A stretch of 64,000 bases of DNA from Oceanithermus desulfurans (GCF_014201675.1 NZ_JACHEZ010000010.1:14640-78639), one strand, 5' to 3'; positions 1,172-49,222 are shown, numbered from the stretch's first letter. Numbers and translations are program-made. The notes: generated by a model from the letters alone, not told the origin.

Positions 1172-1173
1172 GC

Positions 1174-1200: not shown

Positions 1201-1270
1201 CCCTAATTGGCGATCGCTTCCTCGCAAACCTTCATTACAAACTCGAACGGCGCAGGGATACATTCACGAC

Positions 1271-2410: not shown

Positions 2411-2652
2411 ACCGGCGCAATTACAATGCGGAACTTATTACGGATGGACAATCCCCGGATGATAGCGGTAGAAGTATTCAAGGCACGTATAATTTTGGTT
2501 ATCACAACATATTTTGACAGCATATCAAAACCAAACTTTGATGTATCACAAATACGACACGGTGCATTCTTGTTGGCTCGTGGGTTCTATGAGTAGGACG
2601 GCGACTGCGATACCAAGGTTGAATACACTCAACCTTGATGCATATCACTCCT

Positions 2653-3669: not shown

Positions 3670-3711
3670 CAGGGTACGGGGTTCCAGTGAACAACGTGTT
3701 GGGAGGTTACA
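2658..3711 (-). mobile_element. IS481-family insertion sequence (about 1.05 kb) with imperfect 25-bp terminal inverted repeats starting TGT (TGTGTAGTCCGACCACGTTGTTCAC / TGTAACCTCCCAACACGTTGTTCAC)
   Basis: The inverted repeats were found by reverse-complement comparison of both ends. A single DDE transposase ORF fills the element and its C-terminus overlaps the left IR. Confidence 0.75.
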
Positions 3712-3742
3712 TCAGCAAAGCCCCTTTGGGGTCCAGTGATAA

Positions 3743-3770
3743 CTAAATCCGCTCGAAGTAACGCTTGCGG
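3743..3770. repeat. Right copy of the direct repeat (the native 3' end of the GS-family gene) that bounds the inserted segment 1198-3742
   Basis: See the left copy at 1174-1200. Confidence 0.8.
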
Positions 3771-5128
3771 TCCCAGTCGGTCACCGCCTGCTCGTAGGCC
3801 TTCCACTCGGTGCGGAAGAAGTGCAGGTAGTGGGCGTGCACCTCCTCGCCCAGCACCCGGCGGGCGAGCTCGCTGGCTTCGAAGAGGTCGGCGGCCTCGC
3901 GCAGGCTGTAGGGCACCCGCGGCAGCTCGGCCGCAGCGTAGACGTCGCCCTCGAAGATCGGCGGCGGCTCGATCCGCTGCTCGATGCCCGCGAGGCCGCT
4001 GGCCAGCATGGCGGTGTAGGCCAGGTAGGGGTTCGTGTCGGCTCCGGGGATGCGGTTTTCCACACGCAACGAAGCGCCCGCGCCGACGACCCGGAAGCCC
4101 GCAGTGCGGTTGTCGTAGCTCCAGGCCAGCCGCGTGGGGGCCCAGGAGGCGTCCTCGTAGCGCTTGTAGCTGTTCACGGTGGGGGCGTAGAAGACCATCC
4201 AGTCGGGGGCGAAACGGATCAGCCCGCCGAGGAAGTGCAGGAAGATCTCGGAGGCCTGGACGCGGCCGATGGACCGCTCGCCGGCAAAGGCGTTCTGCGC
4301 CTCGGCCCAGAGGCTCATGTGGATGTGGCTGCTCGAGCCCGCCTGGCCACCGGCGGGCTTGGCCATGAAGGTGACGCTCATCTCCTGCTGGTCGGCGATC
4401 TCCTTGAGCGCCTCCTTCATGAGCACGTGGCGGTCGGCCATCTCCAGGGCTTCGGTGTAGCGCAGGTTGAGCTCGTGCTGGCCCCGGCCCCACTCGCCCT
4501 TGGTGCTCTCGACGGGGATGCCGGCGTCGCGCAGGTCGCGCCGGGCGGCGGAGTGGAAGGCCTCGGTGCGCGAACCCTGGAAGACGTGGTAGTCCTCCAG
4601 GTACCAGCCCGCGGGCCGAAGGGCGGCGAAGCCGCGATCGGCAAACTCACGGTAAGGGGTCTCGAAGAGGTAGTACTCGAGCTCGGAGGCCGCCATGACG
4701 GCGAACCCCGCCTCGGCGGTGCGCGCCAGCTGCGCCCTCAGCAGGTTGCGCGGGGCCACGGGCACGGGCTCGTGGTTCGCGGTGCTCAGCACGTCGGCGA
4801 GGACGATTGCGCTGCTGGAGGTCCGGTGCCAGGTGGCGGGGCGCAGGGTGTCGAGGTCGGGCACCAGGTGGACGTCGCCGTAGCCGCGCTCCCAGTTGGC
4901 GAAGGCGTAGCCGGGCACCGGGTTCATCTCCATGTCCACGGTGAGCAGGTAGTCGCAGGCGTGGGTACCGGCGCGGGCGGCGGCCTCGAGGAAGAACTCG
5001 GCGTCGAAGCGTTTGCCCATCAGGCGTCCATAGAGGTCGGGGAAAGCGACGATGACGGTGTCGATCTCGCCCTCGGCCACCAGGCCGGCCAGGGCATCGA
5101 GCGTGAGTTTGCCGCGGGGGTGGGGCAT
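3743..5128 (-). CDS. Glutamine synthetase family protein (GlnA3/PuuA-like, about 460 aa)
   Basis: Motifs typical of the GS catalytic domain ('KPAGGQAGSSSHIHMSLW', 'NSYKRY', 'NRTAGFRV..ENRIPGADTNPYLA'). Confidence 0.85.
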   Translation of the reverse strand: MPHPRGKLTLDALAGLVAEGEIDTVIVAFPDLYGRLMGKRFDAEFFLEAAARAGTHACDYLLTVDMEMNPVPGYAFANWERGYGDVHLVPDLDTLRPATWHRTSSSAIVLADVLSTANHEPVPVAPRNLLRAQLARTAEAGFAVMAASELEYYLFETPYREFADRGFAALRPAGWYLEDYHVFQGSRTEAFHSAARRDLRDAGIPVESTKGEWGRGQHELNLRYTEALEMADRHVLMKEALKEIADQQEMSVTFMAKPAGGQAGSSSHIHMSLWAEAQNAFAGERSIGRVQASEIFLHFLGGLIRFAPDWMVFYAPTVNSYKRYEDASWAPTRLAWSYDNRTAGFRVVGAGASLRVENRIPGADTNPYLAYTAMLASGLAGIEQRIEPPPIFEGDVYAAAELPRVPYSLREAADLFEASELARRVLGEEVHAHYLHFFRTEWKAYEQAVTDWDRKRYFERI

Positions 5129-8530: not shown

Positions 8531-9058
8531 ATGAAACGGATCCTGCTCTTCCTGGGCCTCAGCCTGACGCTCGCCGCCTGCAGCCTGGCGCCGATCACGA
8601 TCGACCTAATGCCCACCCTCCAGCAGAACGGCGCCGACGCCGGCACCCAGACGGTCACCGCCGCAGGCGCCCTCGACCTGAGGCTCCCCGACCGCTCCGG
8701 CTACGGGGTTAGCGGTTACGAGGTGCCCTCGCTGCGCCCGAACCAGGTCAGGCTCGAGTACACCCTGGTGCTCGAACAGGACGGCGGACTGAGCGGAAGC
8801 GCGGAACTGCGCTTCTACCTGGCCCCCACAGGAGCCGACCTCTGGAACGCCGCGGAGCAGGTCGGCGACCCAATCGCGGTGGACCTCAGCCAGACCTCCA
8901 CCACCCTCTCGGGCAGCCTGGAGCTCAGCCCCGAGCAGATCGACACGCTGATGTCGGGCACGCTCACGGTGGGCGCCCGCATCGCCGGCACGGCCAGCGG
9001 AACGGCCACGGTGAGCTACCGTTTCGAACGGCTGGTCCTCAAGGTCGCCTTCTTCTAA
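8531..9058 (+). CDS. Lipoprotein, hypothetical
   Basis: Signal peptide with lipobox 'LTLAAC'; 175 aa. Confidence 0.6.
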   Translation: MKRILLFLGLSLTLAACSLAPITIDLMPTLQQNGADAGTQTVTAAGALDLRLPDRSGYGVSGYEVPSLRPNQVRLEYTLVLEQDGGLSGSAELRFYLAPTGADLWNAAEQVGDPIAVDLSQTSTTLSGSLELSPEQIDTLMSGTLTVGARIAGTASGTATVSYRFERLVLKVAFF

Positions 9059-9122
9059 CCTTTGTCCGCGGCACCGCCGGGCGGCCTGCGGGCCGCCCCT
9101 CTTCTTGGCGCTAGAGTGGGGT

Positions 9123-10298
9123 ATGCGCCCGTGGCCGCTGGGGATCCTGCTCCTCCTGGGTTTGACCCTCGCCCAGCCCGCCCAGCTGGGCCCCCGCCCC
9201 TTCTTCCTGCTCGACCGCCTGGAGCCCGGCCCGCTCCACCAGCGGCTGGCCGCCTGCGCCGCCCGCACGGAGGCCTACCCGCGCTCGCCTTTGGCCGTCG
9301 GTCACCGCGGTGCGGCGCTCTTCTTCCCCGAGCACACCCGCGAGGGCTACCTGGCGGCGGTCCGCCAGGGCGCGGGCTTCGTGGAGTGCGACGCGGTGCC
9401 CACCGCGGACGGCGCGCTCGTCTGCCGCCACTCCGACCGTGATTTGGCCGAGACCACCAGTATCCTCAGCACCCCGCTGGCCGCGAAGTGCCGCAAGCCC
9501 TTCCGGCCCGGGCGCAAGCCCGACTGCCGCACCACCGACCTGACCCTGGCCGAGTTTTTGTCGCTCGAGGGCTGGCCCGAAGGCCGCAACGAGGCCGCCC
9601 GGAAGCCCGAAGACTACTACCGCGCCGCCCCCGCCTGGCGCACCCTGGCCTACGCCCCGGGCACGGTGATGAGCCACCGTCGGTACATCGAGCTGCTCAA
9701 GCCCACCGGGGTCAACTTCATCCCCGAACTCAAGAAGGCGGACCCGCCGCCGGGGATGAGCCTGGAGGCCTACCGACGGCGGATCGTGGACGACTACCGC
9801 GAGCTGGGCGTGCCCCCCGAGCGGGTCTACCTGCAGAGCTTCGACCTGGAAGACTTGCGTTTTTGGCGCCGCTACGCCCCCGAATACGCGAAGAACGCCG
9901 TCTGGCTCGACGGCCGCTACAGGGAGCGGGGCTTCGACCCCGCACATCCCGAGCGGCTGAAGCCGAGCATGGCGGCGCTGGCCGCGGAGGGGCTGCGCTT
10001 CTTGAGCCCGCCGCTATGGGTGCTGCTGGCGCTGGACGAAGACGGCGGGATCGTGCCCTCGGCCTACGCCGGCGCGGCGCGCGCCGCGGGGCTCGAGCTG
10101 ATCCCCTGGACGCTCGAGCGCTCGGGTCCGCTCACCGGGGGCGGGGGCTGGTACTACCGGAGCGTGCGGCCGGCCATCCGCTCGGACGGCGACGTCTACC
10201 GGGTGCTCGACGTGCTGGTGAACCAGATCGGCGTCTACGCGATCTTCTCCGACTGGCCGGCCACGGTGACCTTCTTCGACGCCTGCGGGCGCCGCTGA
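9123..10298 (+). CDS. Glycerophosphodiester phosphodiesterase family protein (secreted)
   Basis: 'AVGHRGAALFFPEHTREGYLAAVRQGAGFVECDAVPTADGALVCRHS' is the GDPD HR(G)...E.D signature. Signal peptide present. Start taken at the internal ATG (MRPWPLG). Confidence 0.75.
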   Translation: MRPWPLGILLLLGLTLAQPAQLGPRPFFLLDRLEPGPLHQRLAACAARTEAYPRSPLAVGHRGAALFFPEHTREGYLAAVRQGAGFVECDAVPTADGALVCRHSDRDLAETTSILSTPLAAKCRKPFRPGRKPDCRTTDLTLAEFLSLEGWPEGRNEAARKPEDYYRAAPAWRTLAYAPGTVMSHRRYIELLKPTGVNFIPELKKADPPPGMSLEAYRRRIVDDYRELGVPPERVYLQSFDLEDLRFWRRYAPEYAKNAVWLDGRYRERGFDPAHPERLKPSMAALAAEGLRFLSPPLWVLLALDEDGGIVPSAYAGAARAAGLELIPWTLERSGPLTGGGGWYYRSVRPAIRSDGDVYRVLDVLVNQIGVYAIFSDWPATVTFFDACGRR

Positions 10299-23377: not shown

Positions 23378-23484
23378 AGCGGGCCTCCTTGATTCGAGGC
23401 TACGCCAAGCGCATTCCCGAATGGAAGGGCAAACCCAAAGCGTTCCGGCTGGATTTGTTAACGAACGTAAGCCATACTGGGGCC

Positions 23485-23964
23485 ATGGCTTTACGAAACA
23501 AAAACCGCCTGGACCGGGTGGACCTGGCCATCCTCACCGAGCTGCAGGCGGACGCCCGCATCTCGATCAGCGAGTTGGCGCGCCGCGTGGGGCGCAGCGC
23601 CCCCGCGGTGGCCGAGCGCGTGCGCAAGCTCGAGGAGGCGGGGGTGATCGAGGGCTACCGCGCCCAGATCAACCCCGCGGCGCTGGGCTTCTCGGTCATC
23701 GCCCTGATCGAGCTGACCACCACCCCCGCCCACTACGACGAGGTGAACCGCTACGCCGCGCGCACGCCCGAGGTGCAGGAGTGCCACTTCGTCACCGGCG
23801 GCGCGTCGTTCATCGTGCGCGTGGTGGCGCGCTCGATCGACAACCTGCGGCGGATCATCGAGGAGTTGAGCGTCTACGGCAGCACCCGCACCTCGGTGGC
23901 GCTGGCCTCGCCCATCATCAAGACCCGCTTCGATCTCGAGGCGCTGGCCCGCCCGGATGCCTAG
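23485..23964 (+). CDS. Lrp/AsnC family transcriptional regulator, divergent from ald (AldR-like)
   Basis: '[47 protein letters not shown]' HTH plus a RAM domain. Start taken at the internal ATG (MALRNKN). Confidence 0.85.
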
Positions 23965-24737
23965 AACCTGGGCTTGCGCTTTTCGAAGAAGGCCGCAAGC
24001 CCCTCCTCCAGGTCGGCGCTCTGGCGGATCCAGGCGCCGGCGGCGGCGGCGTAGCGCAGCGCGTCCTCGAGCCCCATCCCGTAGAACGAAGCCAGCAGCT
24101 CCTTGGTGAGCGCCAGCGAAGCGGGGGCGTTCTCGGCGATGCGGCCGGCCCAGGCCACGGCTTCGTCTACGCTGGTACCCGCCGCCGCCACGCGGCCCGC
24201 GAGCCCCATCCGGTAGGCGGTCGGCGCGTCCACCAGGTCGCCGGTGAGCAGCAACTCGCGGGCGTGCTTCTCGCCTACCGCGCGCACCAGCAGCACCCCC
24301 ACCAGCGCGGCTACGAAGCCGATCTTCACCTCGGTGTAGCCGATGCGCGCCTCCTCGTCCATCACGATCAGGTCGCAGGCGGTGGCCAGCCCGGCGCCGC
24401 CGGCGACCGCGGGGCCGTTCACCGCCGCCACCACCGGCTTGGGGAAGGTGTAGACCCGCAGGAAGAGGTCGCGCAGCCGCCCCGAGTGGGCCAGGTTGGC
24501 CTCGGCGGACTCGCTGCGTACCCGCCGGAGGAAGTCCAGGTCGGCCCCGGCCGAGAAGGCCCGGCCCGCGCCCGTGATCACCAGCGCCCGCACCTCCTCC
24601 GCCGCCTCGGCCGCGTCCAGGGCCTGGTGCAACGCCCGCGCCAGTGCGTCCGAAAGGGGGTTGCGGCGCTCGGGGTCGGAGAGGGTGAGCACGCGCACCC
24701 GCCCGATGTCCTTGGTGACGACCCGTTCGCTGCCCAT
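23961..24737 (-). CDS. Enoyl-CoA hydratase/isomerase (crotonase) family protein
   Basis: 'ALVITGAGRAFSAGADL' and 'AAVNGPAVAGGAGLATACD' are crotonase-fold signatures. Confidence 0.85.
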   Translation of the reverse strand: MGSERVVTKDIGRVRVLTLSDPERRNPLSDALARALHQALDAAEAAEEVRALVITGAGRAFSAGADLDFLRRVRSESAEANLAHSGRLRDLFLRVYTFPKPVVAAVNGPAVAGGAGLATACDLIVMDEEARIGYTEVKIGFVAALVGVLLVRAVGEKHARELLLTGDLVDAPTAYRMGLAGRVAAAGTSVDEAVAWAGRIAENAPASLALTKELLASFYGMGLEDALRYAAAAGAWIRQSADLEEGLAAFFEKRKPRF

Positions 24738-24770
24738 ACACCCAGACTACCCGTATTTCCGTGGAGCGGG

Positions 24771-25580
24771 TCAGTCCACGCGGATCGTCCGCGGGTCGAA
24801 ATCGACCTTGGGGAAGCGCGGGTCCATGGCCTCGAGCGTCTCCACGAGCACCCGCGCCACGATCAGGTTACGCTGCCACTTGCGGTCGGCGGGCACCGCG
24901 TACCAGGGGGCCGCGGCGGTGGAGGTGCGCTCGAGCATGACCCGGTAGGCCTCGGTGTAGGCGTCCCAGAGCTTGCGCTCCGCCAAATCGGCGGGGTTGA
25001 ACTTCCAGTTCTTCTCGGGGTTGGCGAGCCGCGCCTCGAGCCGCTCCTTCTGCTCTTCCTTGGAGATATGTAGAAAGAACTTGACGATGCGCGTGCCCTC
25101 GTCGGCCAGCAGCTGCTCGAAGGCGTTGATGTGGTCGTAGCGCCGCTCCCACACCTCGCGCGGCACCAGCCCGTGCACCCGCACCACCAGCACGTCCTCG
25201 TAGTGGCTGCGGTTGAAGATGCCGATCTCGCCCCGCGCCGGCGCGTGCCGGTGCACCCGCCAGAGGTAGTCGTGCGCCAGCTCGAGCGCGGTCGGTTTCT
25301 TGAACGTGGTGACCCGCACCCCCTGGGGATTGACCGCGCGGAAGACGTGGCGGATGGTGCCGTCCTTGCCGGCGGTGTCCATGCCCTGCAGCACGATCAG
25401 GAGGGCCTGGCGGCCCTCGGCGTAGAGGCGGGCTTGCAGTTCACCCAGCCGCCGCGAGAGTTCGACCAGCTGCTTGCGCGCCGTTTTCTTACCGCCGCCG
25501 AAGCCGTCGTCCTCGCGCGTAGGCCACCGCATGAGGTCGACGGGGGCGCCGGGTTCGATCCGGTACCGGGAAACGTCCAT
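24771..25580 (-). CDS. ppk2: Polyphosphate kinase 2 (PPK2) family protein
   Basis: 'IVLQGMDTAGKDGTIRHV' Walker A, 'FNRSHYEDVLVVRVHG' and 'WQRNLIVARVL' are PPK2 motifs. Confidence 0.85.
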   Translation of the reverse strand: MDVSRYRIEPGAPVDLMRWPTREDDGFGGGKKTARKQLVELSRRLGELQARLYAEGRQALLIVLQGMDTAGKDGTIRHVFRAVNPQGVRVTTFKKPTALELAHDYLWRVHRHAPARGEIGIFNRSHYEDVLVVRVHGLVPREVWERRYDHINAFEQLLADEGTRIVKFFLHISKEEQKERLEARLANPEKNWKFNPADLAERKLWDAYTEAYRVMLERTSTAAAPWYAVPADRKWQRNLIVARVLVETLEAMDPRFPKVDFDPRTIRVD

Positions 25581-25600
25581 GCTCCAGTCTACGCAAATCG

Positions 25601-25622
25601 GTTTTGTGACGGTTTTGTGACG
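25601..25622. promoter_or_regulatory. Tandem direct repeats GTTTTGTGACG x2 (11-bp phasing) between divergent ppk2 and the first Ig-like lipoprotein gene; putative response-regulator (PhoB/OmpR-like) box
   Basis: Exact 11-mer repeated twice, 36 nt upstream of the 25658 start and about 20 nt from the ppk2 start. A related pair sits upstream of the third paralog (27591-27612), followed in both cases by GCGRCCGC..CTA. Confidence 0.5.
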
Positions 25623-25657
25623 CGACCGCGCTACCCCTGAGGCGAGGTGATGAAACG

Positions 25658-26611
25658 ATGCGCATACGTTGGTGGATGCTGCTCACCCTCTTCCTCACCG
25701 CCTGTGGGACACAAGAACCACCGGCTCCCCAGGTGAACGCTTTCTACCCTCCGGACGGCTACCACGGTTTCAAGAAAGACGAGTCGCTCCGCATCGCCTT
25801 CAACGAACCCATGGACCCGGCCACCACCGAGGCCGCCTTCCAGTTGCTGGGCCCGGCCGGCGCTCCGGTAGCGGTGAGCTTTACCTGGGAAGACGGCGGC
25901 CGCCGACTCAAGATTACGCCGGCCAACCCGCTCGCCTACAGCCCCGACAGCAGCTACCAAAGCTACCGCTACCTGCTCTCCACCGGGGCACGCTCGCAAA
26001 GGGGAACGCCGTTGGAAAGCGACCTCGACGTCTCCTTTACGACGATGCGCACCCTCACCGAAGTGCGCGACGCGGTCGCGGCGCTGGACGGCGCGGTTTC
26101 CTCAGCCGGTTTCGTATACAACGACCCCAACGACCCCAGCGCCTACACGACCGCCCGAACCGGCGACACCGTGGCCGATAAGGGCCTGCGCAGCTTCTTC
26201 GCCTTCGACCTGAGCGGGCTCGACGTCGCCGCCGAAGACGTCGCCTTCGCCCGGCTGGACCTCTACAACACCGCGCTCCGGGGCGCTCCCTTCGGCCCCG
26301 GGAACCTCGGCAACCTGGTCACCGAAACCGTGGACTACCTGGACGACGATCAACTCGACGCGGGCGACTACGCCCTCGCGGCGGGCCGCATCCTGGGCAC
26401 GGTGGCGTCGTGGGGAAGTGGTGTCCACGTCAACCTCGATGTGGACGAGGGCTTGAAAGACGCGCTGGACGCCAGCGGCGCCTACCTGCAACTGCGACTG
26501 CGCTTTGAAAACGAGAGCAACGGCGACGGCTCAGAAGACAGCGTCAACCCCGCCACCGGGGAAGACACGAACCACCCGCCACGGCTGACCGTTGGTTACT
26601 ACGCGCCCTAA
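25658..26611 (+). CDS. Ig-like (SbsA/Big_5-type) domain lipoprotein, paralog 1 of 3
   Basis: Lipobox 'LTACG'. 'FYPPDGYHGFKKDESLRIAFNEPMDPATTEAAF...VSFTTMRTL' is shared with the next two genes. Confidence 0.7.
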   Translation: MRIRWWMLLTLFLTACGTQEPPAPQVNAFYPPDGYHGFKKDESLRIAFNEPMDPATTEAAFQLLGPAGAPVAVSFTWEDGGRRLKITPANPLAYSPDSSYQSYRYLLSTGARSQRGTPLESDLDVSFTTMRTLTEVRDAVAALDGAVSSAGFVYNDPNDPSAYTTARTGDTVADKGLRSFFAFDLSGLDVAAEDVAFARLDLYNTALRGAPFGPGNLGNLVTETVDYLDDDQLDAGDYALAAGRILGTVASWGSGVHVNLDVDEGLKDALDASGAYLQLRLRFENESNGDGSEDSVNPATGEDTNHPPRLTVGYYAP

Positions 26612-26614
26612 AAG

Positions 26615-27583
26615 GTGATGTTGATGTTGGCAAGACGAACTATCTTATCGCTGTTCGGACTCCTCCTGCTCGCCGCCTGCGGCGGCAGCCAACCCGCCGA
26701 CGCCACCGCGCCTACCGTGGTTTCGGTCTACCCCGCCGACGGCTTCCACGGCTTCAAACGGGGCGAGGCGATTACGATTACCTTCAACGAACCCGTCGAC
26801 CCGATCAGCGTCATGGAAGCCTACCGTTCGGACGACGAAGGGCTGAAGCCCGACCAAGTGACCTTCGCCTTCGCCGACGGTGGCAAGAAGGTGTACATCC
26901 AACCGGTCCAGCCGCTGCTCTACAGCCCCACCGACGCCTACCTCTACTACGCCTTCGAGCTCGGCCCTGAGGTCAGCGACCGCTCCGGCAACCCCCTGGC
27001 CCAGCCCCTGCGCGTAAGCTTTAGCACCATGCGCACGCTCACCGCCAACCTGCCCTCAGAACGCGCCTTCGACGGCAGCGCCTCGCCCACCGCCGCCGTA
27101 AGCGACCAGGCGCTCCTTTCCGTTGGCGACGGCGCCACCGACGCGGGCATCCGTGGCTTCTTCAGCTTCGCCTTTCCCGAAGACGCTGGCGGGGTGCTGG
27201 CGGCCGAGCTGCGCTTCTTCGTCCACCACATCAGCGGAACCCCCTTCGCCGATCTGGGCCGGTTGAGCCTCGAGCCGGTAACCCTGGGTGACGCGCTGGA
27301 CGCCACCGACTACTACGTCTCGGCGCTCGCGACCCCCATCACCGACGCCGGCACCGGCTGGACCGACGGCAGCTACCGCACCTACGGCGTGAGCGACTGG
27401 GCCATCGCCGCCTGGAACGAAGGGCGAGGTCGCCTGGAAGTCCGGCTCCGCTTCGACGCCGAGACCGACCACGACGGCTCTACCGACGCCCTCTTTCTCG
27501 TGGCTCAGGACGCCGAGGAAGTACCCGAAGCCATCGGCCCCGAGTACCTTCCGGTGCTGCGCCTTACCTACTACGGCCCCTGA
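26615..27583 (+). CDS. Ig-like domain lipoprotein, paralog 2 (4-nt gap after paralog 1; co-transcribed)
   Basis: 'VYPADGFHGFKRGEAITITFNEPVDP...VSFSTMRTL'; lipobox 'LLAACGG'. Confidence 0.7.
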   Translation: MMLMLARRTILSLFGLLLLAACGGSQPADATAPTVVSVYPADGFHGFKRGEAITITFNEPVDPISVMEAYRSDDEGLKPDQVTFAFADGGKKVYIQPVQPLLYSPTDAYLYYAFELGPEVSDRSGNPLAQPLRVSFSTMRTLTANLPSERAFDGSASPTAAVSDQALLSVGDGATDAGIRGFFSFAFPEDAGGVLAAELRFFVHHISGTPFADLGRLSLEPVTLGDALDATDYYVSALATPITDAGTGWTDGSYRTYGVSDWAIAAWNEGRGRLEVRLRFDAETDHDGSTDALFLVAQDAEEVPEAIGPEYLPVLRLTYYGP

Positions 27584-27590
27584 CCGGACG

Positions 27591-27612
27591 GCTTGTGACG
27601 GTTATGTGACGG
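27591..27612. promoter_or_regulatory. Second copy of the TGTGACGG x2 direct-repeat box (gcTTGTGACGG-ttaTGTGACGG), upstream of paralog 3
   Basis: Same 11-bp phasing and the same distance (about 36-47 nt) to the start codon as the 25601-25622 box. Confidence 0.5.
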
Positions 27613-27647
27613 TGCGGCCGCTAGGCTCCGGTCGTTAGGAGACGACC

Positions 27648-28571
27648 GTGAACCACACCTGGACCTACACCTTCACCGCACTGCTCCTCGTCCTCGCCAG
27701 CTGCGCCGGCACCGGCACCGCGCCCGACACCACGCCGCCCGAGGTGCGCTCCAGCTCCCCGGCCGACGGCTCCCACGGGGCCACCAAGAACGCCGTCATC
27801 TCCGTCGCCTTCAGCGAGCCGATGAACGAGGCGGCCACCGAAGCGGCCTTCGTGCTGGAGGACGCCGGCGGTTCGCCGGTGGCGGTCACGCTGAGCTGGG
27901 CCGACGAAGGCAAGCGCCTCGTGGCCGTACCCAGCGCCCCGCTCGCCTACAGTTCCGACGCCAGCTACCAAAGCTACACCTACCGCGTCGGTACCGGCGC
28001 CGCCGACAGCGCCGGCAACCACCTGGCCGCGGCCTACGAGGCGACGTTCAGCACCATGCGCCGGCTGGGGTTCACCCTGGAGGGGGAAGCGGAGCTCGAC
28101 GGGTCCGTTTACTCGAACGGGGGCGTCTACGACAACCTCTCAAACACCTTCGTGGGCGACGGCCCATCGGACTTCTACGTCCGCGCCTTCTTCTCCTTCC
28201 CGCTGAGCAGCCTGCCCGCGAACGTCGAGTCGGTGGAGCGGGCCCGGATCAACCTCTACAGCAAGAAAGAAAATAACGGCGACGCGCTTCACTATCGCCT
28301 GGAGCACGTCGACTACGGCGACCGCCTGGACGCGGCCGACTACGGCCTCACGGCCCTCGCCAGCGAGCCGGTCTTCCCGCCCGACGACGGCTGGTTGCGA
28401 GCCGACGAACGCGGCTGGCTCCAGGAAGACCTGAACGCCGGCCGCATCCGCTTCCAGATCCGCCTGAGCTCCGACAACAACGGCGACGGAAGCGAGGATG
28501 GCTACTGGCTGACCACCACCGACGCCGGCAGCGACAAGCCTTTCGTGCAGGTCGTCGTCTACGCGCCTTAG
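27648..28571 (+). CDS. Ig-like domain lipoprotein, paralog 3
   Basis: 'SSPADGSHGATKNAVISVAFSEPMNEAATEAAF...ATFSTMRRL'; GTG start; lipobox 'LASCAG'. Confidence 0.7.
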   Translation: MNHTWTYTFTALLLVLASCAGTGTAPDTTPPEVRSSSPADGSHGATKNAVISVAFSEPMNEAATEAAFVLEDAGGSPVAVTLSWADEGKRLVAVPSAPLAYSSDASYQSYTYRVGTGAADSAGNHLAAAYEATFSTMRRLGFTLEGEAELDGSVYSNGGVYDNLSNTFVGDGPSDFYVRAFFSFPLSSLPANVESVERARINLYSKKENNGDALHYRLEHVDYGDRLDAADYGLTALASEPVFPPDDGWLRADERGWLQEDLNAGRIRFQIRLSSDNNGDGSEDGYWLTTTDAGSDKPFVQVVVYAP

Positions 28572-29336
28572 CTAGCGTCGCCTCATCCGGCGCTCCCCGT
28601 AGGCGAAGAGGCGCACCCGCCAGCCCGCAGGGAGCGCCCGCAAAAGGCGCAAGGGCCAGGCCAGCCGCCTCGGGAAGGCGACCTCGAAGGCGCGGCCCGC
28701 AAGCCCACGGGCGATGATGCGCGCGGCCGCGTCGGCCTCGAGCATGAAGGGCATGGGGAACTCGTTGGCGGCGATGATCGGCGTCTTCACGAAGCCGGGA
28801 CTGATGAGCTTCAGGTCGATCTTCTCGCGCTGCAGCTCGGCCCAGAGCGCCTCGGCGTAGTAGGCGAGCGCCGCCTTGCTGGTGCCGTAGCCGCTGGTGC
28901 GCGGCAGCCCCGCGTAGCCGGCCAGCGAGCCCACCAGCGCGATGGTACCGCCGCCGGCGGCGCGCATGCGCGGCCTGAGGGCGTCGAGGGCGTAGGCCAC
29001 GCCCAGCAGGTTGACCTCAAGGTGCTTTTTCAGGTTCGCCGCGGTGTCGTCGCGGCCCGCGCGCTTGAACGCCGCGCCCGCGTTCAGGACGGCGAGGTCC
29101 AGAGGGCCCGTGTCCTCCCAGACGGCGGCCACCGTCCGCTCCACCGCCTCGGCGTCGGTGACGTCGAGGGGGTAGGCGGCGCCGCCGGTTTCGCGCGCCA
29201 CCGCTTCCAGCCGCTCGACGTTGCGCCCCGAGACCAGCACGTACGCCCCCTGGCGGGCGTAGTGCCGGGCCAGGGCCCGCCCGATGCCGCTCGAGCCGCC
29301 GGTGATCCAAACCCGATGAAACCTCTTTTCGCCCAT
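28572..29336 (-). CDS. SDR family short-chain dehydrogenase/reductase
   Basis: 'VWITGGSSGIGRAL' (TGxxxGxG), 'LNAGAA', and a YxxxK catalytic motif ('YGTSKAAL'). Confidence 0.85.
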   Translation of the reverse strand: MGEKRFHRVWITGGSSGIGRALARHYARQGAYVLVSGRNVERLEAVARETGGAAYPLDVTDAEAVERTVAAVWEDTGPLDLAVLNAGAAFKRAGRDDTAANLKKHLEVNLLGVAYALDALRPRMRAAGGGTIALVGSLAGYAGLPRTSGYGTSKAALAYYAEALWAELQREKIDLKLISPGFVKTPIIAANEFPMPFMLEADAAARIIARGLAGRAFEVAFPRRLAWPLRLLRALPAGWRVRLFAYGERRMRRR

Positions 29337-29394
29337 CTGCCCCCGATTCTACCCCCGGGACGCTCTGAAGCCGCGGGCGTACGCGGGCGCGGCG

Positions 29395-43496: not shown

Positions 43497-44004
43497 CCCC
43501 GACCTCGACACCGCCGGTCGGCCGCTGCGCGCCGCCGGCCTGCTCCTCATGGGGGCCGCCCTGGCCTACTACGCCTACGGCACGGCCGCAGGGCTGCCGC
43601 TCGGACGGGCGCTGGTGGCGCTGTGGGTCTTTCTGATCGTGGCCTTCTTCGTGGGGTTGCTTTGGTGGATGCCGGCGCGGCTGCGGTACCGGCTCTCGGA
43701 CCGGGACCTGGAGATCCAGCACTTCCTGGGCCGCCGCCGCATCCAGCTCGAGAACCTGCGCGAGGTCCACGAGGTAACCTTCGCGCTGGGCCGCCGCAGC
43801 GGCAGCGCCGCGCTGCCGGGGTACTACGTGGGGCGGTTCCAGAGCAACCTGGGCCGCCTCACCGCCTACACCGGCCGGGCCGCGGGCGAGGGGGTCCTGC
43901 TCGTGCTCCACACCGGCGAGCAGGTGCTGCTCGCCCCCAAGCGGGCCCGGCTGATGCTGGCGCAGCTGCGCAGCGCGCTCCCCGAGGGCGCCGAGGAGGC
44001 CTGA
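43483..44004 (+). CDS. Membrane protein with bacterial PH (bPH_2/DUF304-like) domain
   Basis: Two N-terminal TM helices, then '[27 protein letters not shown]', the typical YdbS/YdbT-type PH-domain beginning; 173 aa. Overlaps the CPBP start (ATGA). Confidence 0.55.
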
Positions 44005-44858
44005 TGAACCAAGCCGACCGAGCCGTAACCGTAACCATCGTCCTCAGCTGGCTGTTGTTCGCGGTCTACTACACGCAGGTGGGGACGCTGAACAGCCCCT
44101 GGTTCCTGGGGTTCAGCCTGGTCTACATGTGGATCCCGGGAATCGTCGCTCTGGTGCTCGCCCGGCGCGAGGGGCTGCGCCTCCGCCTCTGGGCGCGACC
44201 CAACCGCTGGTGGCTGGCCGCCTGGCTGCTGCCGGTGCTCTTCAGCCTGGCCAGCATCGCCGCCAGCCTGCCCCTCGACGAGTACGTAGGGCTTGCCCAA
44301 GTCCGCGAGGCGATCGCGGCCCGGAGCGGAGCCGAGGCGGCGAGCCTGCCCGAGTGGGCCTTGTGGACGGCGCTGATCGTCCAGGCGCTGCTGGCCGGCG
44401 CGACGATCAACCTGCTCTTCGCGCTGGGCGAAGAGCTGATGTGGCGCGGCTACCTCTGGGAGCGCACCCGCGAGCTGGGGTTCTGGCCCGCCTCGCTCTA
44501 CATCGGCGTGGTCTGGGGTGCCTGGCACGCGCCGCTCGTTTACTTCCTGGGCTACAACTACCCCGACCACCGCTTCCTGGGGGTCTTCTTCATGGTGGTC
44601 TTCGCGGTGCTGCTCACCCCCTGGATGCTCTACCTGCGCGATAAAGGCGGGGCGGTCGCGGTGCCGGCCCTCTTCCACGGCACCCTGAACGCCGTGGCCG
44701 GCCTGCCCTTGCTCGTTTTCGCGGGCAGCGCCGACCCCCTAAACCGCACGAACGACCTGCTCGTGGGCCTTACCGGTCTGGGCGGCTTCGTGGTGCTGGC
44801 GCTGGCAAACCTCTACCTGAGGCGCCTGGTGCCGCCGGATCGGGAAAGCGCAGGCTGA
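44004..44858 (+). CDS. CPBP family intramembrane glutamic endopeptidase (CAAX protease / Abi family)
   Basis: 'LFALGEELMWRGYL', 'FWPASLYIGVVWGAWH' and 'ALFHGTLN' are CPBP motifs 1-3. Confidence 0.85.
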   Translation: MNQADRAVTVTIVLSWLLFAVYYTQVGTLNSPWFLGFSLVYMWIPGIVALVLARREGLRLRLWARPNRWWLAAWLLPVLFSLASIAASLPLDEYVGLAQVREAIAARSGAEAASLPEWALWTALIVQALLAGATINLLFALGEELMWRGYLWERTRELGFWPASLYIGVVWGAWHAPLVYFLGYNYPDHRFLGVFFMVVFAVLLTPWMLYLRDKGGAVAVPALFHGTLNAVAGLPLLVFAGSADPLNRTNDLLVGLTGLGGFVVLALANLYLRRLVPPDRESAG

Positions 44859-44868
44859 ACAGCGGTCT

Positions 44869-45393
44869 TCACAGCTCCGGGAGTCTGCTGTTAATATCTT
44901 TTAATTCCGAGTAAAATTTTTTTGCTTTCTCTAGTCGCTCCGGTGTTGCTTTACGAGGCTTACGACGACTGGTTTCCTCCCAAGGGTCTTCGTACCCCTC
45001 TTCTTTTTTTAAATACAATGCTGTCGCCGCCAATTCTAGCGTGATGGAGTCTGTTTCATTCATTTTCTTTAGCAGTAAGTTTTGCTCATCAGCTTCGGTC
45101 GCATCATCAAGTGTCTTTTTAACTATTTCATATATTGAATATTTTCTCTTTCCATCAGCTGTTAGAGATTCAGTATGTTTGACTATACCCATTGCTGTTG
45201 CTATTTCAATGTGATTTGACAGATCTTCGCTGTATGGCCCATAGTGGAAGTATACATAGTCATAACCCATATCGATTCCGGCCGCCTCCATGATATAAAC
45301 CATTTTCTGAAGCCTAGTTTTACCTACGACTCTCCCACCTGCCTTCTCTATAATTGATACCACCTTCTTAGGGCTGATCACGGGTTTAATCAT
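44869..45393 (-). CDS. Panacea-domain (DUF4065, SocA/GepA-like) protein; putative antitoxin/immunity partner of the upstream HD protein
   Basis: 174 aa in the AT-rich island. 'GKTRLQKMVYIMEAAG...YVYFHYGPYSEDL' matches the Panacea 'T.LKLQKLLYYAQ...YGPV.PE.Y' core. Overlaps the HD gene by 4 nt (ATGA). Confidence 0.55.
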   Translation of the reverse strand: MIKPVISPKKVVSIIEKAGGRVVGKTRLQKMVYIMEAAGIDMGYDYVYFHYGPYSEDLSNHIEIATAMGIVKHTESLTADGKRKYSIYEIVKKTLDDATEADEQNLLLKKMNETDSITLELAATALYLKKEEGYEDPWEETSRRKPRKATPERLEKAKKFYSELKDINSRLPEL

Positions 45394-46835
45394 TTTGCCT
45401 CCTTGATCGCTTGCTCGACCGCACGTTTGGATATGTCCATTACTATACCATAACCATCATTGTCCCCCCTGTCTACGTAAGCCCTAAAAAGGTCCAACTT
45501 GTACGGCCTGGTGACTACAACAGGGGACTCTAATGCAATATCCTGTACTTCTCCATGCACATCCTCAATAAATATCTGACTAAAATTAGGAGTCTTGTTA
45601 TATTCATAGAGCTTTCGGGACTTGCCGTCTATTAATATTCTTGGTTGTTCTTTAGACAGTGCAGAATTGTATTGTTCAATTTCATTTATCACGTAGTTTT
45701 TTACGAGAGTGGATATACTAGGCATAATCTCATCAAATACACCTTTGTCTCTGAGCATTTGTTTTACTAATAGATGAATATCTATAGCTTTATATAAATT
45801 ACGTTCTAATAATTGCTTAGCTAATTTAGATATTCTTAGTATATCGGACTCTGCCAAGTAGTAGAGGCTATTCCAGAATACAGTGTCATCCAATTGCAGG
45901 ATGTTATCTATATTCTTAGGTTCGTTGACGAAATTGACATATTGGTGGTTCTCAGGTAAACCAAGCCTCTTGACGCCAGATGCTCCCTCACTTTTAATTA
46001 TCTTAAATACTTCGGTAAGCAAAGCGGTGAACATACTTTCTGCAGCACGAACTGCTTTATGAAAATACACAGTTGGATACAGCTGAAAAAGCGAGAGAAC
46101 ATAAGTTTCTGCAGCATATATAGCTTTTCTATTCAAAGTAAGCGTAGTTAGTTCGCTGTAACGCTCTCCGTCCTCAGAGTACAAAGGGATTATGCCGATC
46201 TCCATATTCGATAGCAGCCAGGTAAAGTCTATTGCGCTGTTCTGAATCCCTACCATAAGTCTATCCCGCTGCATGTAATCTAGGCGGTCTGCATCAAATT
46301 GACTCGATACAATAGCGTCATAGATATCCTCTGGCTCTTTGGAAATGACGTTTGCGACATCGTCAGGAAAGCCGCTACCCAGGCTTGATAACACGTCAGC
46401 AATCTCGCTATCCGTAATAAGTCGCCTACTTTTCTCCTCGTGGCTTATACTGTCTACCTTAGTAATAGCAAGCACATCTTCGAATGCATGACTGAACATA
46501 CCATGGCCAACATCGTGCAGCAAAGCTGCGGCCAGAACAATATTGGCCTTAGTAGCTGAAAAATTAATATCCAGTCTCCTTTTGATTATATTTATTAGTT
46601 TCCTTGCTATATGAAATGTTCCTATACTATGGATAAACCTAGTATGTGTGGCTCCAGGATACACAAGATCAGTAAAACCAAGCTGTTTGATTCTTCTGAG
46701 TCTTTGGAAGGGTCTAGTTTGAATGACTCTCCACATGTGGTATTCAAATTCTGTATTATCAAATTCAATTAGATTATGCACCGGATCTCTTATTCTCTGT
46801 GGTTTCCTCGTCACATGAATCGCCTCTGGTGTCAT
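45390..46835 (-). CDS. HD-domain dNTP triphosphohydrolase (dGTPase/SAMHD1-like) protein, 481 aa
   Basis: 'HTRFIHSIGTFHIARKL' (His), 'AALLHDVGHGMFSH' (HD motif), 'DADRLDYMQRDRLMVGI' (dGTPase/SAMHD1 catalytic Asp motif). About 38% GC versus about 68% for the flanks. Confidence 0.7.
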   Translation of the reverse strand: MTPEAIHVTRKPQRIRDPVHNLIEFDNTEFEYHMWRVIQTRPFQRLRRIKQLGFTDLVYPGATHTRFIHSIGTFHIARKLINIIKRRLDINFSATKANIVLAAALLHDVGHGMFSHAFEDVLAITKVDSISHEEKSRRLITDSEIADVLSSLGSGFPDDVANVISKEPEDIYDAIVSSQFDADRLDYMQRDRLMVGIQNSAIDFTWLLSNMEIGIIPLYSEDGERYSELTTLTLNRKAIYAAETYVLSLFQLYPTVYFHKAVRAAESMFTALLTEVFKIIKSEGASGVKRLGLPENHQYVNFVNEPKNIDNILQLDDTVFWNSLYYLAESDILRISKLAKQLLERNLYKAIDIHLLVKQMLRDKGVFDEIMPSISTLVKNYVINEIEQYNSALSKEQPRILIDGKSRKLYEYNKTPNFSQIFIEDVHGEVQDIALESPVVVTRPYKLDLFRAYVDRGDNDGYGIVMDISKRAVEQAIKEAK

Positions 46836-46900
46836 ATTACAAATGTAATAGCATGTTTAATGTTCATTTTCAACAGTGGTAACAGTGGTACAGTTGGTCC
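46836..46900 (-). promoter_or_regulatory. Putative promoter of the HD-Panacea operon (TTGAAA-17-TATTAC, about 9 nt before ATG) preceded by the tandem repeat TACCACTGT x2
   Basis: Read on the minus strand: '...tgtaccactgttaccactgTTGAAAatgaacattaaacatgcTATTACatttgtaatATG'. Confidence 0.35.
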
Positions 46901-47137
46901 TGGCACAGGCGCTCTTGTTCCCAAGGCTTTGCAGCGGAGAGTATTGCTAGAGGGCTTTGTTTTAGGCGCTCAGCTCACGGTGATAATAGCTGTACAAACG
47001 ATATAGCGCGCGGCTTAGATTGCTACATTGCTCGAGCTGAGTGCTGACCCATATCCCTAGTGTTAGACGCACGGAACTTACCATGCCACTCTTTGATTGT
47101 GAAGCGCGAAAGCCATAGACTGAAGGGGGAGGCCGCA

Positions 47138-47653
47138 ATGAAAGCCCTTTTGCGCCGCAGGTCGCCGGTACTGGCTCTGGCGATGCTGGCCCTATTTGCG
47201 TGGGCCCAGCCGCAGGACGTCCCCTGGCCGGTCGACACCGCCCAACCCGACTGGGACTACGGTTTCTGGTTCGACAAGAACACGGCGCGCTGGCAAACGT
47301 TCGCCCCGGCCCATCCCGAGCTGCGGGCGCTGGCCGTCTACGTCGACCGAATGGGGGACCCGGGTACGGTCGTGGTGGAGCTGCAAGACCCCGACGGCCA
47401 AGCGCTCGCGCGGGTCAGCGGCAAACCCGAAAGGGGAGGCTGGCTCTACCTGCCCTTCGAAAAGGCCGTCCGGGTGACCCCCGGCAGGCTCTACCGGATC
47501 TACGTATACAGCGACCGGGTATCGCCCAATCCCAGGCAGCGGTTCTTCTGGCGGGGAATCCGGTCGAGCCGCTTCTGCCCGGTCTGCACGACCGACGTCG
47601 CCAGTGGCTGGCCGCAGTTCCGCTACGCCTTCGTCGTCTACGCTTCCCGCTGA
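47138..47653 (+). CDS. Secreted hypothetical protein
   Basis: Signal peptide 'MKALLRRRSPVLALAMLALFAWAQP'; 171 aa from the internal Met. Confidence 0.55.
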   Translation: MKALLRRRSPVLALAMLALFAWAQPQDVPWPVDTAQPDWDYGFWFDKNTARWQTFAPAHPELRALAVYVDRMGDPGTVVVELQDPDGQALARVSGKPERGGWLYLPFEKAVRVTPGRLYRIYVYSDRVSPNPRQRFFWRGIRSSRFCPVCTTDVASGWPQFRYAFVVYASR

Positions 47654-47696
47654 ACCCGCTTGCCCGGGGCCCGCGGCCGCGGTTATAGTAAGCGCA

Positions 47697-47738
47697 ATGA
47701 AACGCTTCGCCGTTCGCTTCTGGTGGTGGCCCGGTTAA
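47697..47738 (+). CDS. trpL: trp operon leader peptide MKRFAVRFWWWPG (three consecutive Trp codons)
   Basis: 14-codon ORF with WWW. Followed by alternative hairpins sharing the self-complementary CCCGGGGCG segments and a terminator just upstream of trpE. Confidence 0.7.
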   Translation: MKRFAVRFWWWPG

Positions 47739-47765
47739 CCCCGGGGCGGACGGCCTGTGCTTGAT

Positions 47766-47800
47766 TCCCGGGGCGATGCACACCGGGAGTTTTTATTTTG
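47766..47800 (+). terminator. Attenuator terminator: TCCCGG...CCGGGA stem followed by GTTTTTATTTT
   Basis: Hairpin plus U-tract ending about 15 nt before the trpE start; an upstream CCCCGGGGCG copy can form the antiterminator. Confidence 0.65.
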
Positions 47801-47812
47801 CTTGCCAAGGAG

Positions 47813-49222
47813 ATGACGATGAAGACGAAACCCGTGGTCAAGACCCTGCTCGCCGATCTGGAAACGCCGGTGACCGCCTACCTGAAGCTGGCCGAGAAAG
47901 CGCCGGTAAGTTTCCTGCTCGAGTCGGTGGAGGCGGGCAAGCGCTGGAGCCGCTACTCGATCATCGGCGTCGGGGCCAGGCGCACCTTCCGGCTGAGGGA
48001 CGGCGCCTTCACCATCGACGGCACCGAGGTAAAGGCCGAGGACCCGCTGGCCACGCTCTACCACGCGGTGCATCGCGAGGTGGAAAACGGTCACGAGCTG
48101 CCGCCCTTCTGGGGCGGGGCGGTGGGCTACGTGGCCTACGACCTGGTGCGCTACTACGAAGAGCTGCCCGACGCCAACCCCGACGAGATCGGCGCGCCCG
48201 ACCTGCTCTTCGTCGAGCCCGAACTGGTGGTGGTCTTCGACCACCTGAAGCAGGTGCTGCACCTCGTGGCCCCGGCGCTGGGCGACGGCCCCTCGGCCGC
48301 CGCCCGCGCCCGGGAGCTGCTGGACGCCGCCGAGCGCAGGCTGCGGGGGCCGCTGCCGGGGGTGCCGGGCGGGCGCGGCGGGCGCAAGACCGCGTTCCGC
48401 GCTAACCTGAGCCCTGCGGACTACGCCCGCATCGTCGAAAAAAGCAAGGAGTACATCCGCGCCGGCGACATCTTCCAGGTGGTGCCCTCGGTGCGCTTCA
48501 CCGCCGAGCTGGGGGTGCACCCCTTCGCCCTCTACCGGGCGCTCAGGAGCGTCAACCCCAGCCCCTACATGGGCTACCTTGACCTGGGCGAGGTGACGCT
48601 CGTCTCGGCCAGCCCCGAGAGCCTGCTGCGCGCCGAAGGCCGCCGCGTGACCACCCGCCCCATCGCCGGCACCCGGCCGCGCGGGGCTACGCCCGAGGAG
48701 GACCGGGCGCTGGCCGAGGAGCTGCTGGCCGACGAGAAGGAGCGCGCCGAGCACGTGATGCTGGTGGACCTGAGCCGCAACGACCTCGGCCGGGTGGCCA
48801 AGCACGGAAGCGTTCGGGTGGAGGAGTTGATGCGGGTGGAGCATTACTCACACGTCATGCACATCGTCAGCACCGTGACCGGGGAGCTGGAAGAGGGCAA
48901 GACGCCGCTCGACGCGCTGGCGAGCGTGATTCCGATGGGCACGGTCAGCGGCGCGCCCAAGATTCGGGCGATGGAGATCATCGACGAACTCGAGCCCACC
49001 CGCCGCGGCCCCTACGGCGGCGCCTTCGGCTACATCGCCTACGACGGCGCCATGGACGTGGCGCTGACGCTGCGCACCTTCGTGATCGCCGGCGGCAAAG
49101 TGCACGTCCAGGCGGGGGCCGGCGTGGTGGCCGACAGCGACCCCGAGCGCGAGTACCAGGAGTGCGTGAACAAGGCGAAGGCGTTGATGAGAGCAGTCGA
49201 ATTGGCAGAGAAGGGGTTGTGA
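47813..49222 (+). CDS. trpE: Anthranilate synthase component I
   Basis: 'LLESVEAGKRWSRYS', 'GDIFQVVPS', 'SPESLLR...TRPIAGTRPRG', 'GAVGYIAYDGAMD'; 468 aa. Confidence 0.92.
   Translation: MTMKTKPVVKTLLADLETPVTAYLKLAEKAPVSFLLESVEAGKRWSRYSIIGVGARRTFRLRDGAFTIDGTEVKAEDPLATLYHAVHREVENGHELPPFWGGAVGYVAYDLVRYYEELPDANPDEIGAPDLLFVEPELVVVFDHLKQVLHLVAPALGDGPSAAARARELLDAAERRLRGPLPGVPGGRGGRKTAFRANLSPADYARIVEKSKEYIRAGDIFQVVPSVRFTAELGVHPFALYRALRSVNPSPYMGYLDLGEVTLVSASPESLLRAEGRRVTTRPIAGTRPRGATPEEDRALAEELLADEKERAEHVMLVDLSRNDLGRVAKHGSVRVEELMRVEHYSHVMHIVSTVTGELEEGKTPLDALASVIPMGTVSGAPKIRAMEIIDELEPTRRGPYGGAFGYIAYDGAMDVALTLRTFVIAGGKVHVQAGAGVVADSDPEREYQECVNKAKALMRAVELAEKGL

Follow-up and report, generated by a model that had tools for sequence, protein, structure and literature searches.

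The window analysed here is a stretch of 64,000 nucleotides from the deep-sea thermophile Oceanithermus desulfurans (GCF_014201675.1, NZ_JACHEZ010000010.1:14640-78639), in which a polyphosphate kinase 2 gene (ppk2) is divergent from a row of three lipoprotein genes (lipo1, lipo2 and lipo3). The subject of the analysis is a 22-bp box, formed by two 11-bp direct repeats, which is found upstream of lipo1 and again upstream of lipo3, together with the regulator predicted to read it. The locus comprises the following genes and features.

24771-25580, minus strand: ppk2, PF03976 (PPK2), divergent from lipo1
25586-25591, minus strand: predicted ppk2 -10 hexamer TAGACT, followed by GGAGC and then the ATG
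25604-25625, plus strand: box 1, predicted activator site, with upstream direct repeat TTGTGACGGTT (25604-25614) and downstream direct repeat TTGTGACGCGA (25615-25625)
25632-25637, plus strand: predicted -10 hexamer TACCCC of the lipo1-lipo2 promoter, after a gap of CCGCGC (6 nt) from box 1 and with 20 nt to the ATG
25658-26611, plus strand: lipo1, lipoprotein with lipobox LTAC, a Big_5 immunoglobulin (Ig)-like domain and a C-terminal jelly-roll domain
26615-27583, plus strand: lipo2, paralogue of lipo1, Big_5 lipoprotein without a box of its own, starting 3-12 nt past the lipo1 stop
27593-27614, plus strand: box 2, with upstream direct repeat TTGTGACGGTT (27593-27603) and downstream direct repeat ATGTGACGGTG (27604-27614)
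27622-27627, plus strand: predicted -10 hexamer TAGGCT of the lipo3 promoter, after a gap of CGGCCGC (7 nt) from box 2 and with 20 nt to the GTG
27648-28571, plus strand: lipo3, lipoprotein combining the Big_5 Ig-like domain with a jelly roll resembling a carbohydrate-binding module (CBM)

The Big_5 family (PF13205) is present in all three lipoproteins, and lipo3 shows 100% identity to an O. desulfurans protein. The structure model of lipo3 (pLDDT 88) consists of an Ig-like domain and a jelly roll, and the best PDB matches of the latter were a chondroitin-sulfate-binding CBM (8WAB) and an alginate-binding CBM (7VBO); in NCBIfam, lipo3 gave a DNRLRE-domain match below threshold. Judging from these matches, lipo1, lipo2 and lipo3 are probably surface-anchored glycan-binding lipoproteins. 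Since lipo2 begins within a few bases of the end of lipo1 and lacks its own box, it is likely to be co-transcribed with lipo1. The third-position GC content of the three genes (25658-28571) is 0.84-0.92, below the 0.93-0.96 of their neighbours.

The original prediction had reported an exact 11-bp duplication upstream of lipo1 and a second phased pair upstream of lipo3, and both were recovered. The sequence GTTTTGTGACG is present as an exact tandem copy at 25601-25611 and 25612-25622. Allowing for up to three mismatches, the phased sequence TGTGACGGTTNTGTGACG occurs twice in the 64 kb of the window (25605-25622 and 27594-27611), in both cases on the plus strand and in intergenic sequence, against an expectation of 0.08; none of 100 shuffles reached two instances. 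The bare heptamer TGTGACG is not enriched in the window (6 instances versus 5.9 expected). Hence, the signal is the phased pair rather than the word TGTGACG. The resulting 22-bp unit is made of two 11-bp direct repeats, each composed of TTGTGACG and three variable bases, and the 11-bp spacing of TTGTGACG holds in both boxes of the window and at two loci described below, L129 and L128 (loci of the comparative analysis are designated by L numbers). The distance between the end of the box and the start codon is, as had been claimed, essentially equal in the two promoters: 35 nt for lipo1 (ATG at 25658) and 36 nt for lipo3 (GTG at 27648). Likewise, the first repeat of box 1 does lie about 20 nt from the start codon of the divergent gene (25580), and that gene does encode a PPK2. 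The repeats of the box are direct repeats on the same strand and do not form the inverted repeat TGTGA-N6-TCACA of CRP/FNR; a CRP/FNR site was ruled out by the direct-repeat orientation of both half-sites.

A consensus scan of positions 24500-29500 did not identify any sigma-70 -35/-10 pair. The distance from TTGTGA to the hexamer is 11 or 22 nt, which in neither repeat is a workable spacing for a -35. The proposal of a cis-regulatory box with two direct repeats one helical turn apart, standing in place of a -35 element, therefore holds. As in the afs box bound by AfsR, the box replaces a poor -35 and is close to the -10, with the transcription start sites taken as inferred positions. That of lipo1 would be near 25644, upstream of the Shine-Dalgarno (SD) sequence GAGGTGAT, and that of lipo3 near 27634; box 1 is thus predicted to cover about -40 to -19 of the lipo1 promoter. 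On the opposite strand, the TAGACT-GGAGC-ATG arrangement of ppk2 leaves no space for an SD sequence, and the ppk2 mRNA is therefore probably leaderless. The ppk2 hexamer (TAGACT or TAAACT) and its spacing are kept in the Oceanithermus relatives L003, L085, L107 and L059. Box 1 starts 12 nt beyond this hexamer and spans about -24 to -45 of the putative ppk2 promoter, in opposite orientation. The back-to-back promoters of lipo1 and ppk2 probably exclude each other or compete, and hence activation of lipo1 may lower ppk2 expression.

Conservation of the box was evident at several levels. Synteny with the window was seen in two short metagenome contigs, which encode lipo3 relatives of 73% and 48% identity; both keep TTGTGACG-N3-TTGTGACG and the following (G)CTA, whereas the 7-nt gap and all flanks differ. 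The persistence of an invariant box amid scrambled flanks therefore points to selection on the box, not to shared ancestry of the surrounding DNA. A longer GCGRCCGC..CTA element had originally been described next to the repeats; of this, the CTA is kept in relatives, as part of a TAnnnT -10 hexamer, and the remainder is not. Box 1 is conserved between ppk2 and a Big_5 lipoprotein gene in L003, L085, L107, L059 and L111, and box 2 before lipo3 orthologues in L002, L003, L054, L085 and L107, so that the presence of the motif upstream of orthologues in related genomes, on which the original prediction depended, was observed. Unlike lipo2 of the window, its orthologue in Oceanithermus sp. S144_44 (L059) carries its own box. 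The synteny of ppk2, box and lipoprotein gene is conserved, with PPK2 found in 4 related loci, and the box points away from ppk2. For the distant Big_5 homologue P0004 (L004-L009), neither an upstream box nor a nearby SARP gene was found.

To extend the comparison, 185,579 genomes (596 Gb) were scanned with the pattern TGTGACG-N4-TGTGACG-N7/8-GCTA, which fits five sites known beforehand and for which, by our own arithmetic with equal base frequencies, about 35 matches are expected by chance. The scan yielded 121 sites in 118 loci. Box 1 fits this pattern, yet O. desulfurans itself is missing from the matches, which suggests that the collection scanned lacks or masks its genome. Four groups account for 97 of the sites: Deinococcota (40), rumen Clostridia (33), Chloroflexota (14) and Armatimonadota (10). 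The Deinococcota sites are mostly from Oceanithermus and other Thermaceae, with several sites per genome. The heptamer TGTGACG was fixed by the scan pattern, yet it is also invariant in the independently found L002, L003, L128 and L129. A T precedes TGTGACG in 36 of 39 sites at each repeat, and the three positions after TGTGACG are variable; each 11-bp repeat consists, as in the afs box, of 8 conserved bp followed by 3 free positions. The sixth position of the hexamer (-7) was also left free by the pattern, and a T was found there in 34/39 Deinococcota, 32/33 Clostridia, 14/14 Chloroflexota and 10/10 Armatimonadota sites, that is, in 90 of the 96 sites of the four main groups versus 11 of 24 in the remaining taxa. 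The T at this unconstrained position indicates that the sites of the four groups are promoters with a -10 of the sigma-A type. Most scan sites are promoter-like and lie upstream of lipoprotein or secreted-protein genes. Among the open reading frames (ORFs) with an SD sequence downstream of Deinococcota sites, 28 of 31 encode a lipobox, and the Pfam families detected in 90 downstream ORFs include Big_5 (10), SH3_3 (11), LysM, PepSY, DUF5122 and one PhoX. The box therefore defines a surface-lipoprotein regulon, as had been suggested from the window.

In the Clostridia, 11 of the downstream ORFs encode double-glycine-leader proteins with an SH3_3 domain. The metagenome-assembled genomes (MAGs) of rumen Clostridia L011, L019, L037, L040, L076, L087, L088, L091 and L112, among others, have the box before 96-aa proteins of this kind, and boxes of this group also precede LysM and PepSY secreted proteins. 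Several of these Clostridial genes share the conserved 5' leader gcaagcaagggaa.

A candidate for the protein that reads the box emerged from a Pfam census of the 144 ORFs within 3 kb of Deinococcota sites, which returned five proteins of about 1075 aa combining BTAD, AAA_16 and TPR domains. Using a profile of the N-terminal 262 residues of this family, a SARP-domain gene was found to abut the box directly in 16 of the 118 loci: 6 in Thermaceae, 5 in Chloroflexota (among them Anaerolineae and Chloroflexales), 2 in Burkholderiales, 2 in Clostridia and 1 in an unclassified MAG. This adjacency represents about eight independent lineages, and the arrangement varies among the 16 loci, the box being located after the SARP gene, upstream of it or divergent from it. 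O. desulfurans has one such gene, encoding WP_147146592.1 (1079 aa), on a contig different from that of the window locus (GCA_007991015.1 contig BJXN01000006, designated L129, and BJXN01000016, respectively). Its O. profundus orthologue Ocepr_0808 is annotated as "transcriptional regulator, SARP family", and WP_147146592.1 belongs to the same 90% identity cluster. In Pfam, the regulator contains BTAD, AAA_16, AAA_22 and TPR_1/2/12. The N-terminal profile matches the SARP domain of AfsR in 8HVR (residues 45-285, 1.9e-16), including its DNA-binding part, as well as EmbR in 2FEZ (1.6e-15) and full-length AfsR in 8K60 and 8JKE, and in a Chloroflexota homologue, Trans_reg_C and NB-ARC were detected too. 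WP_147146592.1 and Ocepr_0808 hence show the organisation of large SARPs, with the SARP domain at the N-terminus followed by a NOD/NB-ARC ATPase and C-terminal TPRs. A phmmer search of PDB with the full-length regulator matched only a designed TPR protein.

The regulator locus of O. desulfurans carries a third box, TTGTGACGCAG TTGTGACGCAG, in which the stop codon TGA of the SARP gene falls inside the first repeat. The box is followed, in order, by CCCGCC, the hexamer TAAGCT, GGGGCC and the ATG of a 61-aa ORF. Since no SD sequence is present, this ORF appears to be leaderless, and O. profundus (L128) has the same layout. If the ORF is indeed leaderless, counting the A of the ATG as +1 in L129 and L128 places the box at -40 to -19 and the -10 at -12 to -7. 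The regulator-linked sites of O. desulfurans and O. profundus have CCTA instead of GCTA. In L013, L079, L033, L095, L103 and L077, the box likewise overlaps the 3' end of the SARP-NOD-TPR gene, and the ATG of the small ORF is 6-7 nt past the TAnnnT hexamer with no SD sequence. A conserved ORF of 58-61 aa is thus found directly 3' of the SARP-NOD-TPR gene in L129 (13275-13460) and L128 (11275-11460), in these six loci, and also in L130 and L133. The 61-aa ORF has no family in Pfam or NCBIfam, and the homologues found were Oceanithermus-like only. Its structure model is a beta-beta-beta-alpha fold (pLDDT 76) with no significant PDB match. The Chloroflexota ORFs downstream of the box in L010 and L099 resemble it, roughly, in an aromatic-x-x-L/I element, a second strand and G-E-x-x-x-F-x-S-x-x-A-L-x-x-F/Y-L, and on this resemblance their homology with the 61-aa ORF is plausible.

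In loci encoding homologues of the regulator at 32-43% identity, phased repeats are found at the same fixed position but with altered sequence. The four cases identified are as follows.

L130, Thermaceae relative: TTGTAACG / CGGTAACG, then a leaderless 58-aa ORF
L131, Calidithermus: CCTAACGC / GCTAACGC, then a lipoprotein gene
L132, Deinococcus sonorensis, 8860-9160: GGTGACG pairs, then a globin gene and a small ORF beside the regulator
L133, Meiothermus: TGAGACG / TGTAACG, then a 59-aa ORF

The GGTGACG boxes of L132 have the same spacing to a TAnnnT hexamer, and the SARP-NOD-TPR gene in this locus is flanked by genes for DUF5122 propeller proteins. The recognition helix LRQxLxRL is common to most box-linked regulators across phyla, with exceptions in L034 and L051. 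The equivalent helix of AfsR is VRTYASRL, in which T88 and R92 make base contacts. In L131 and L133, whose boxes deviate most, the helix is altered as well, to LRQALFTL and LRVVLHRA, respectively. This covariation of helix and box, although correlative, supports the link between regulator and box.

Taken together with the structural analogy to AfsR, the comparative data make it likely that the box is the docking site of an activator of the AfsR/SARP type and that, in O. desulfurans, it is bound by WP_147146592.1. The afs box of Streptomyces is a 22-bp pair of 11-bp repeats that extends from -40 to -19 and is centred at -29.5; within each repeat, one AfsR protomer makes contact with the initial 8 bp but not with the last 3, and region 4 of sigma is positioned on the SARP dimer, not on a -35 element (PMC10936776). 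By analogy, two SARP domains would sit side by side on the box, one per 11-bp repeat, with contacts concentrated on the conserved first 8 bp (TTGTGACG). The dimer, over about -40 to -19, would stand in for the -35 and dock region 4 of sigma-A, a mechanism known as sigma adaptation, allowing RNA polymerase to use the TAnnnT -10 and switching on lipo1-lipo2 and lipo3. The NOD-TPR part of the protein may gate its activity in response to a signal. Under this mechanism, the reader of the box would activate rather than repress its targets. We also lean, with less assurance, towards a broader reading in which an AfsR-like STAND family with a single specificity (TGTGACG repeats, LRQxLxRL helix) is distributed over no fewer than four or five phyla (Deinococcota, Chloroflexota, Armatimonadota, Clostridia and some Burkholderiales) and governs scattered sets of genes for lipoproteins and secreted proteins. 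As part of that broader reading, the regulon of Deinococcota and Chloroflexota would include the small, apparently leaderless partner ORF, comparable to AfsS.

Several observations weigh against assigning the box to WP_147146592.1. The gene for this protein is outside the window. In the Oceanithermus regulator, the N-terminal 110 residues gave no Trans_reg_C call with Pfam alone, and the NCBIfam equivalog model of AfsR (NF053617) gives it 26 bits against a cut-off of 1430, so that the architecture is the same but the protein is not an AfsR orthologue. The scan forced both TGTGACG copies and GCTA, and the degeneracy of real sites is not measurable from its matches. The hexamer TACCCC following box 1 is suboptimal: its position -7 is not the T seen in 34 of 39 related sites, and compared with the lipo3 promoter, that of lipo1 may hence be weaker or depend more strongly on an activator. 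The adjacency observed in Thermaceae could merely mean that the small ORF is the target of another factor. Finally, in a Chloroflexia MAG (L070, 4513-6187) the box precedes an operon encoding a soluble histidine kinase and an OmpR-type response regulator.

The last of these observations is what a different reading would expect, namely that the box is bound head-to-tail by a phosphorylated regulator of the OmpR/PhoB family (PhoB, or a WalR/MtrA-like protein) that exerts class II activation on a phosphate or envelope-stress regulon. In the classic E. coli pho promoter, 7+4+7 direct repeats are located about 10 bp upstream of a -10 that has no -35, and the box fits that layout. This geometry is non-discriminating, however, because SARP boxes share it. 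The boxes of WalR (TGTWAH-N5-TGTWAH), MtrA and C. glutamicum PhoR resemble TGTGA, and the divergence of ppk2 from box 1, the single PhoX downstream of a site and the envelope proteins that make up the regulon would also agree with such a regulator. Yet pstS, pstCAB and phoU are absent from the 90 downstream ORFs of the 121 sites, and the glycerophosphodiester phosphodiesterase (GDPD) gene of the window has no box; on the gene content downstream of the sites, this is therefore not a Pho regulon, and the phosphate or envelope-stress regulon originally suggested was not upheld. A phmmer search with an OmpR seed across all ORFs of the 118 loci recovered real response regulators in only 3 of them (two Clostridial matches were receiver-GGDEF-EAL proteins), and L070 is the only locus with one operonic behind the box, compared with the 16 loci in which a SARP gene abuts it; moreover, the repeats drift in sequence along with the adjacent SARP gene. 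Of the OmpR/PhoB-type reader first envisaged, the OmpR-fold winged helix is retained, because the DNA-binding domain of SARPs is OmpR-like, and the response regulator is not. The box is probably not a PhoB box, and we regard a reader of the OmpR/PhoB family in general as unlikely.

It is more doubtful still that the conserved elements are a promoter for an alternative sigma factor of the extracytoplasmic function (ECF) type, with TGTGAC as -35 and GCTA as -10. The fixed distance between upstream and downstream elements in 121 sites and the envelope-protein targets, typical of ECF regulons, would suit such a promoter, but it would not explain why both repeats are equally conserved at an 11-bp phase, and the 11 or 22 nt from TTGTGA to the -10 contrast with a spacer of 16-18 nt. 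The -10 is moreover of the sigma-A TAnnnT type (see the T at -7 above) and not of the CGT type, GCTA gives way to CCTA at the regulator-linked sites of O. desulfurans and O. profundus, and a search with an RpoE seed (phmmer, all ORFs) revealed no ECF sigma gene in the 118 loci. Hardly any weight can be given to the repeats being non-regulatory, whether as a relic copied with the duplication of the lipoprotein paralogues or as a chance tandem duplication. Box 1 is an exact 11-bp tandem duplication and the genes behind the boxes of the window are paralogous, in keeping with such an origin, but the comparative data contradict it: relatives with proteins of only 48-73% identity and with a scrambled 7-nt spacer and flanks keep the box unchanged, the paralogous lipo2 of the window lacks it, and it also precedes unrelated genes, including those for DUF5122 propeller lipoproteins, the 61-aa ORF, a globin and SH3/LysM secreted proteins. 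An AfsR/SARP-type activator thus remains the preferred reader of the box.

No two-component or SARP gene was found in the 64-kb window, and Rfam and tRNA scans of the window returned no RNA genes. The Lrp/AsnC gene adjacent to the locus (23389-23964) was considered as a source of the box reader and rejected, as it is not linked to the box elsewhere; members of the Lrp/AsnC family bind AT-rich inverted repeats. Two regions of the window differ in composition. Positions 44000-48000 form a low-GC island (0.52-0.53, versus 0.69 for the window), possibly acquired DNA, and positions 1-4000 are a second lower-GC stretch (0.59-0.62). The genes in these regions and the GDPD gene are as follows.

2653-3669, minus strand: IS481-type transposase, in the lower-GC stretch at 1-4000
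9105-10298, plus strand: GDPD gene, about 15 kb from the boxes
44869-45393, minus strand: ORF of 174 aa with no known family, in the low-GC island
45390-46835, minus strand: HD + HD_assoc_2 protein, in the low-GC island
47060-47653, plus strand: DUF4082 protein, in the low-GC island

So far, work on SARPs has been almost confined to their role as switches of antibiotic clusters; according to a 2024 review, they occur exclusively in actinobacteria (PMC10972967). Searching the literature for SARPs in Deinococcota or Thermaceae, we met only an unrelated use of the acronym and, from D. deserti, a receiver-SARP protein. In the literature searched, we found neither an operator nor a regulon of a SARP described outside Actinobacteria, and a search for published mentions of the raw motif gave nothing relevant. 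From the analysis presented here, a SARP system can be proposed for Thermaceae, including the cultured and fully sequenced O. profundus DSM 14977, together with its predicted operator, its regulon and a candidate for the regulator; uncharacterised Ig-like/CBM-like surface lipoproteins obtain a first regulatory context. If the broader reading given above is true, sigma adaptation by SARPs would be an ancient and widespread form of envelope control and not an actinobacterial antibiotic speciality. The thermostable proteins of these organisms suit structural work on sigma adaptation, and the defined 22-bp box permits regulon prediction.

Among known systems, the Pho boxes of E. coli PhoB and Streptomyces PhoP are similar in that direct repeats one turn apart replace the -35 and are read by a winged helix of the OmpR fold. 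They differ in that the box described here has no linked receiver-domain regulator and no Pho genes in its regulon, and its sequence is not CTGTCAT. An 11-bp phased direct repeat beside a phosphate gene should hence not be read as a Pho box by default. In Streptomyces, the sites of AfsR and PhoP overlap at pstS, phoRP and afsS (PMC10936776), so that there is precedent for linking a SARP box to phosphate; here, ppk2 adjoins box 1. The small SARPs (ActII-ORF4, RedD, DnrI) and EmbR of M. tuberculosis (2FEZ) share the fold of the SARP domain with the regulator. Small SARPs recognise heptameric direct repeats at an 11-bp phase, as here, and in SARPs in general the 3' repeat is located about 8 bp from the -10 (PMC10936776, PMC10972967). 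Unlike the regulator described here, small SARPs and EmbR are without the NOD-TPR part (EmbR has an FHA domain) and often use three repeats, and small SARPs control biosynthetic clusters beside their own gene, whereas the regulon found here is dispersed over the chromosome.

The closest parallel is the AfsR-afsS system of Streptomyces coelicolor (structures 8HVR, 8JKE and 8K60; PMC10936776, PMC11301090). The two systems differ in the host phylum (Deinococcota and other non-actinobacteria) and in the sequence of the repeat (TTGTGACG), in the recognition helix (LRQ here versus VRT in AfsR) and in their targets, which are lipoproteins here and not antibiotic clusters; no link to an AfsK-type kinase is known here, and the 61-aa ORF, with its beta-beta-beta-alpha model, shows, as far as testable, no sequence relationship to AfsS. 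The product of afsS, situated 3' of afsR, has about 63 aa, and in the system described here a very small ORF (58-61 aa) directly 3' of the regulator gene likewise appears as a direct target. The regulators share an architecture of OmpR-like DNA-binding domain, BTAD, NOD ATPase and TPR, and the 22-bp operator predicted here agrees with the afs box in its 8 conserved and 3 free positions per repeat and in its placement at -40 to -19, 6 nt from the -10 (6-7 nt in the window).

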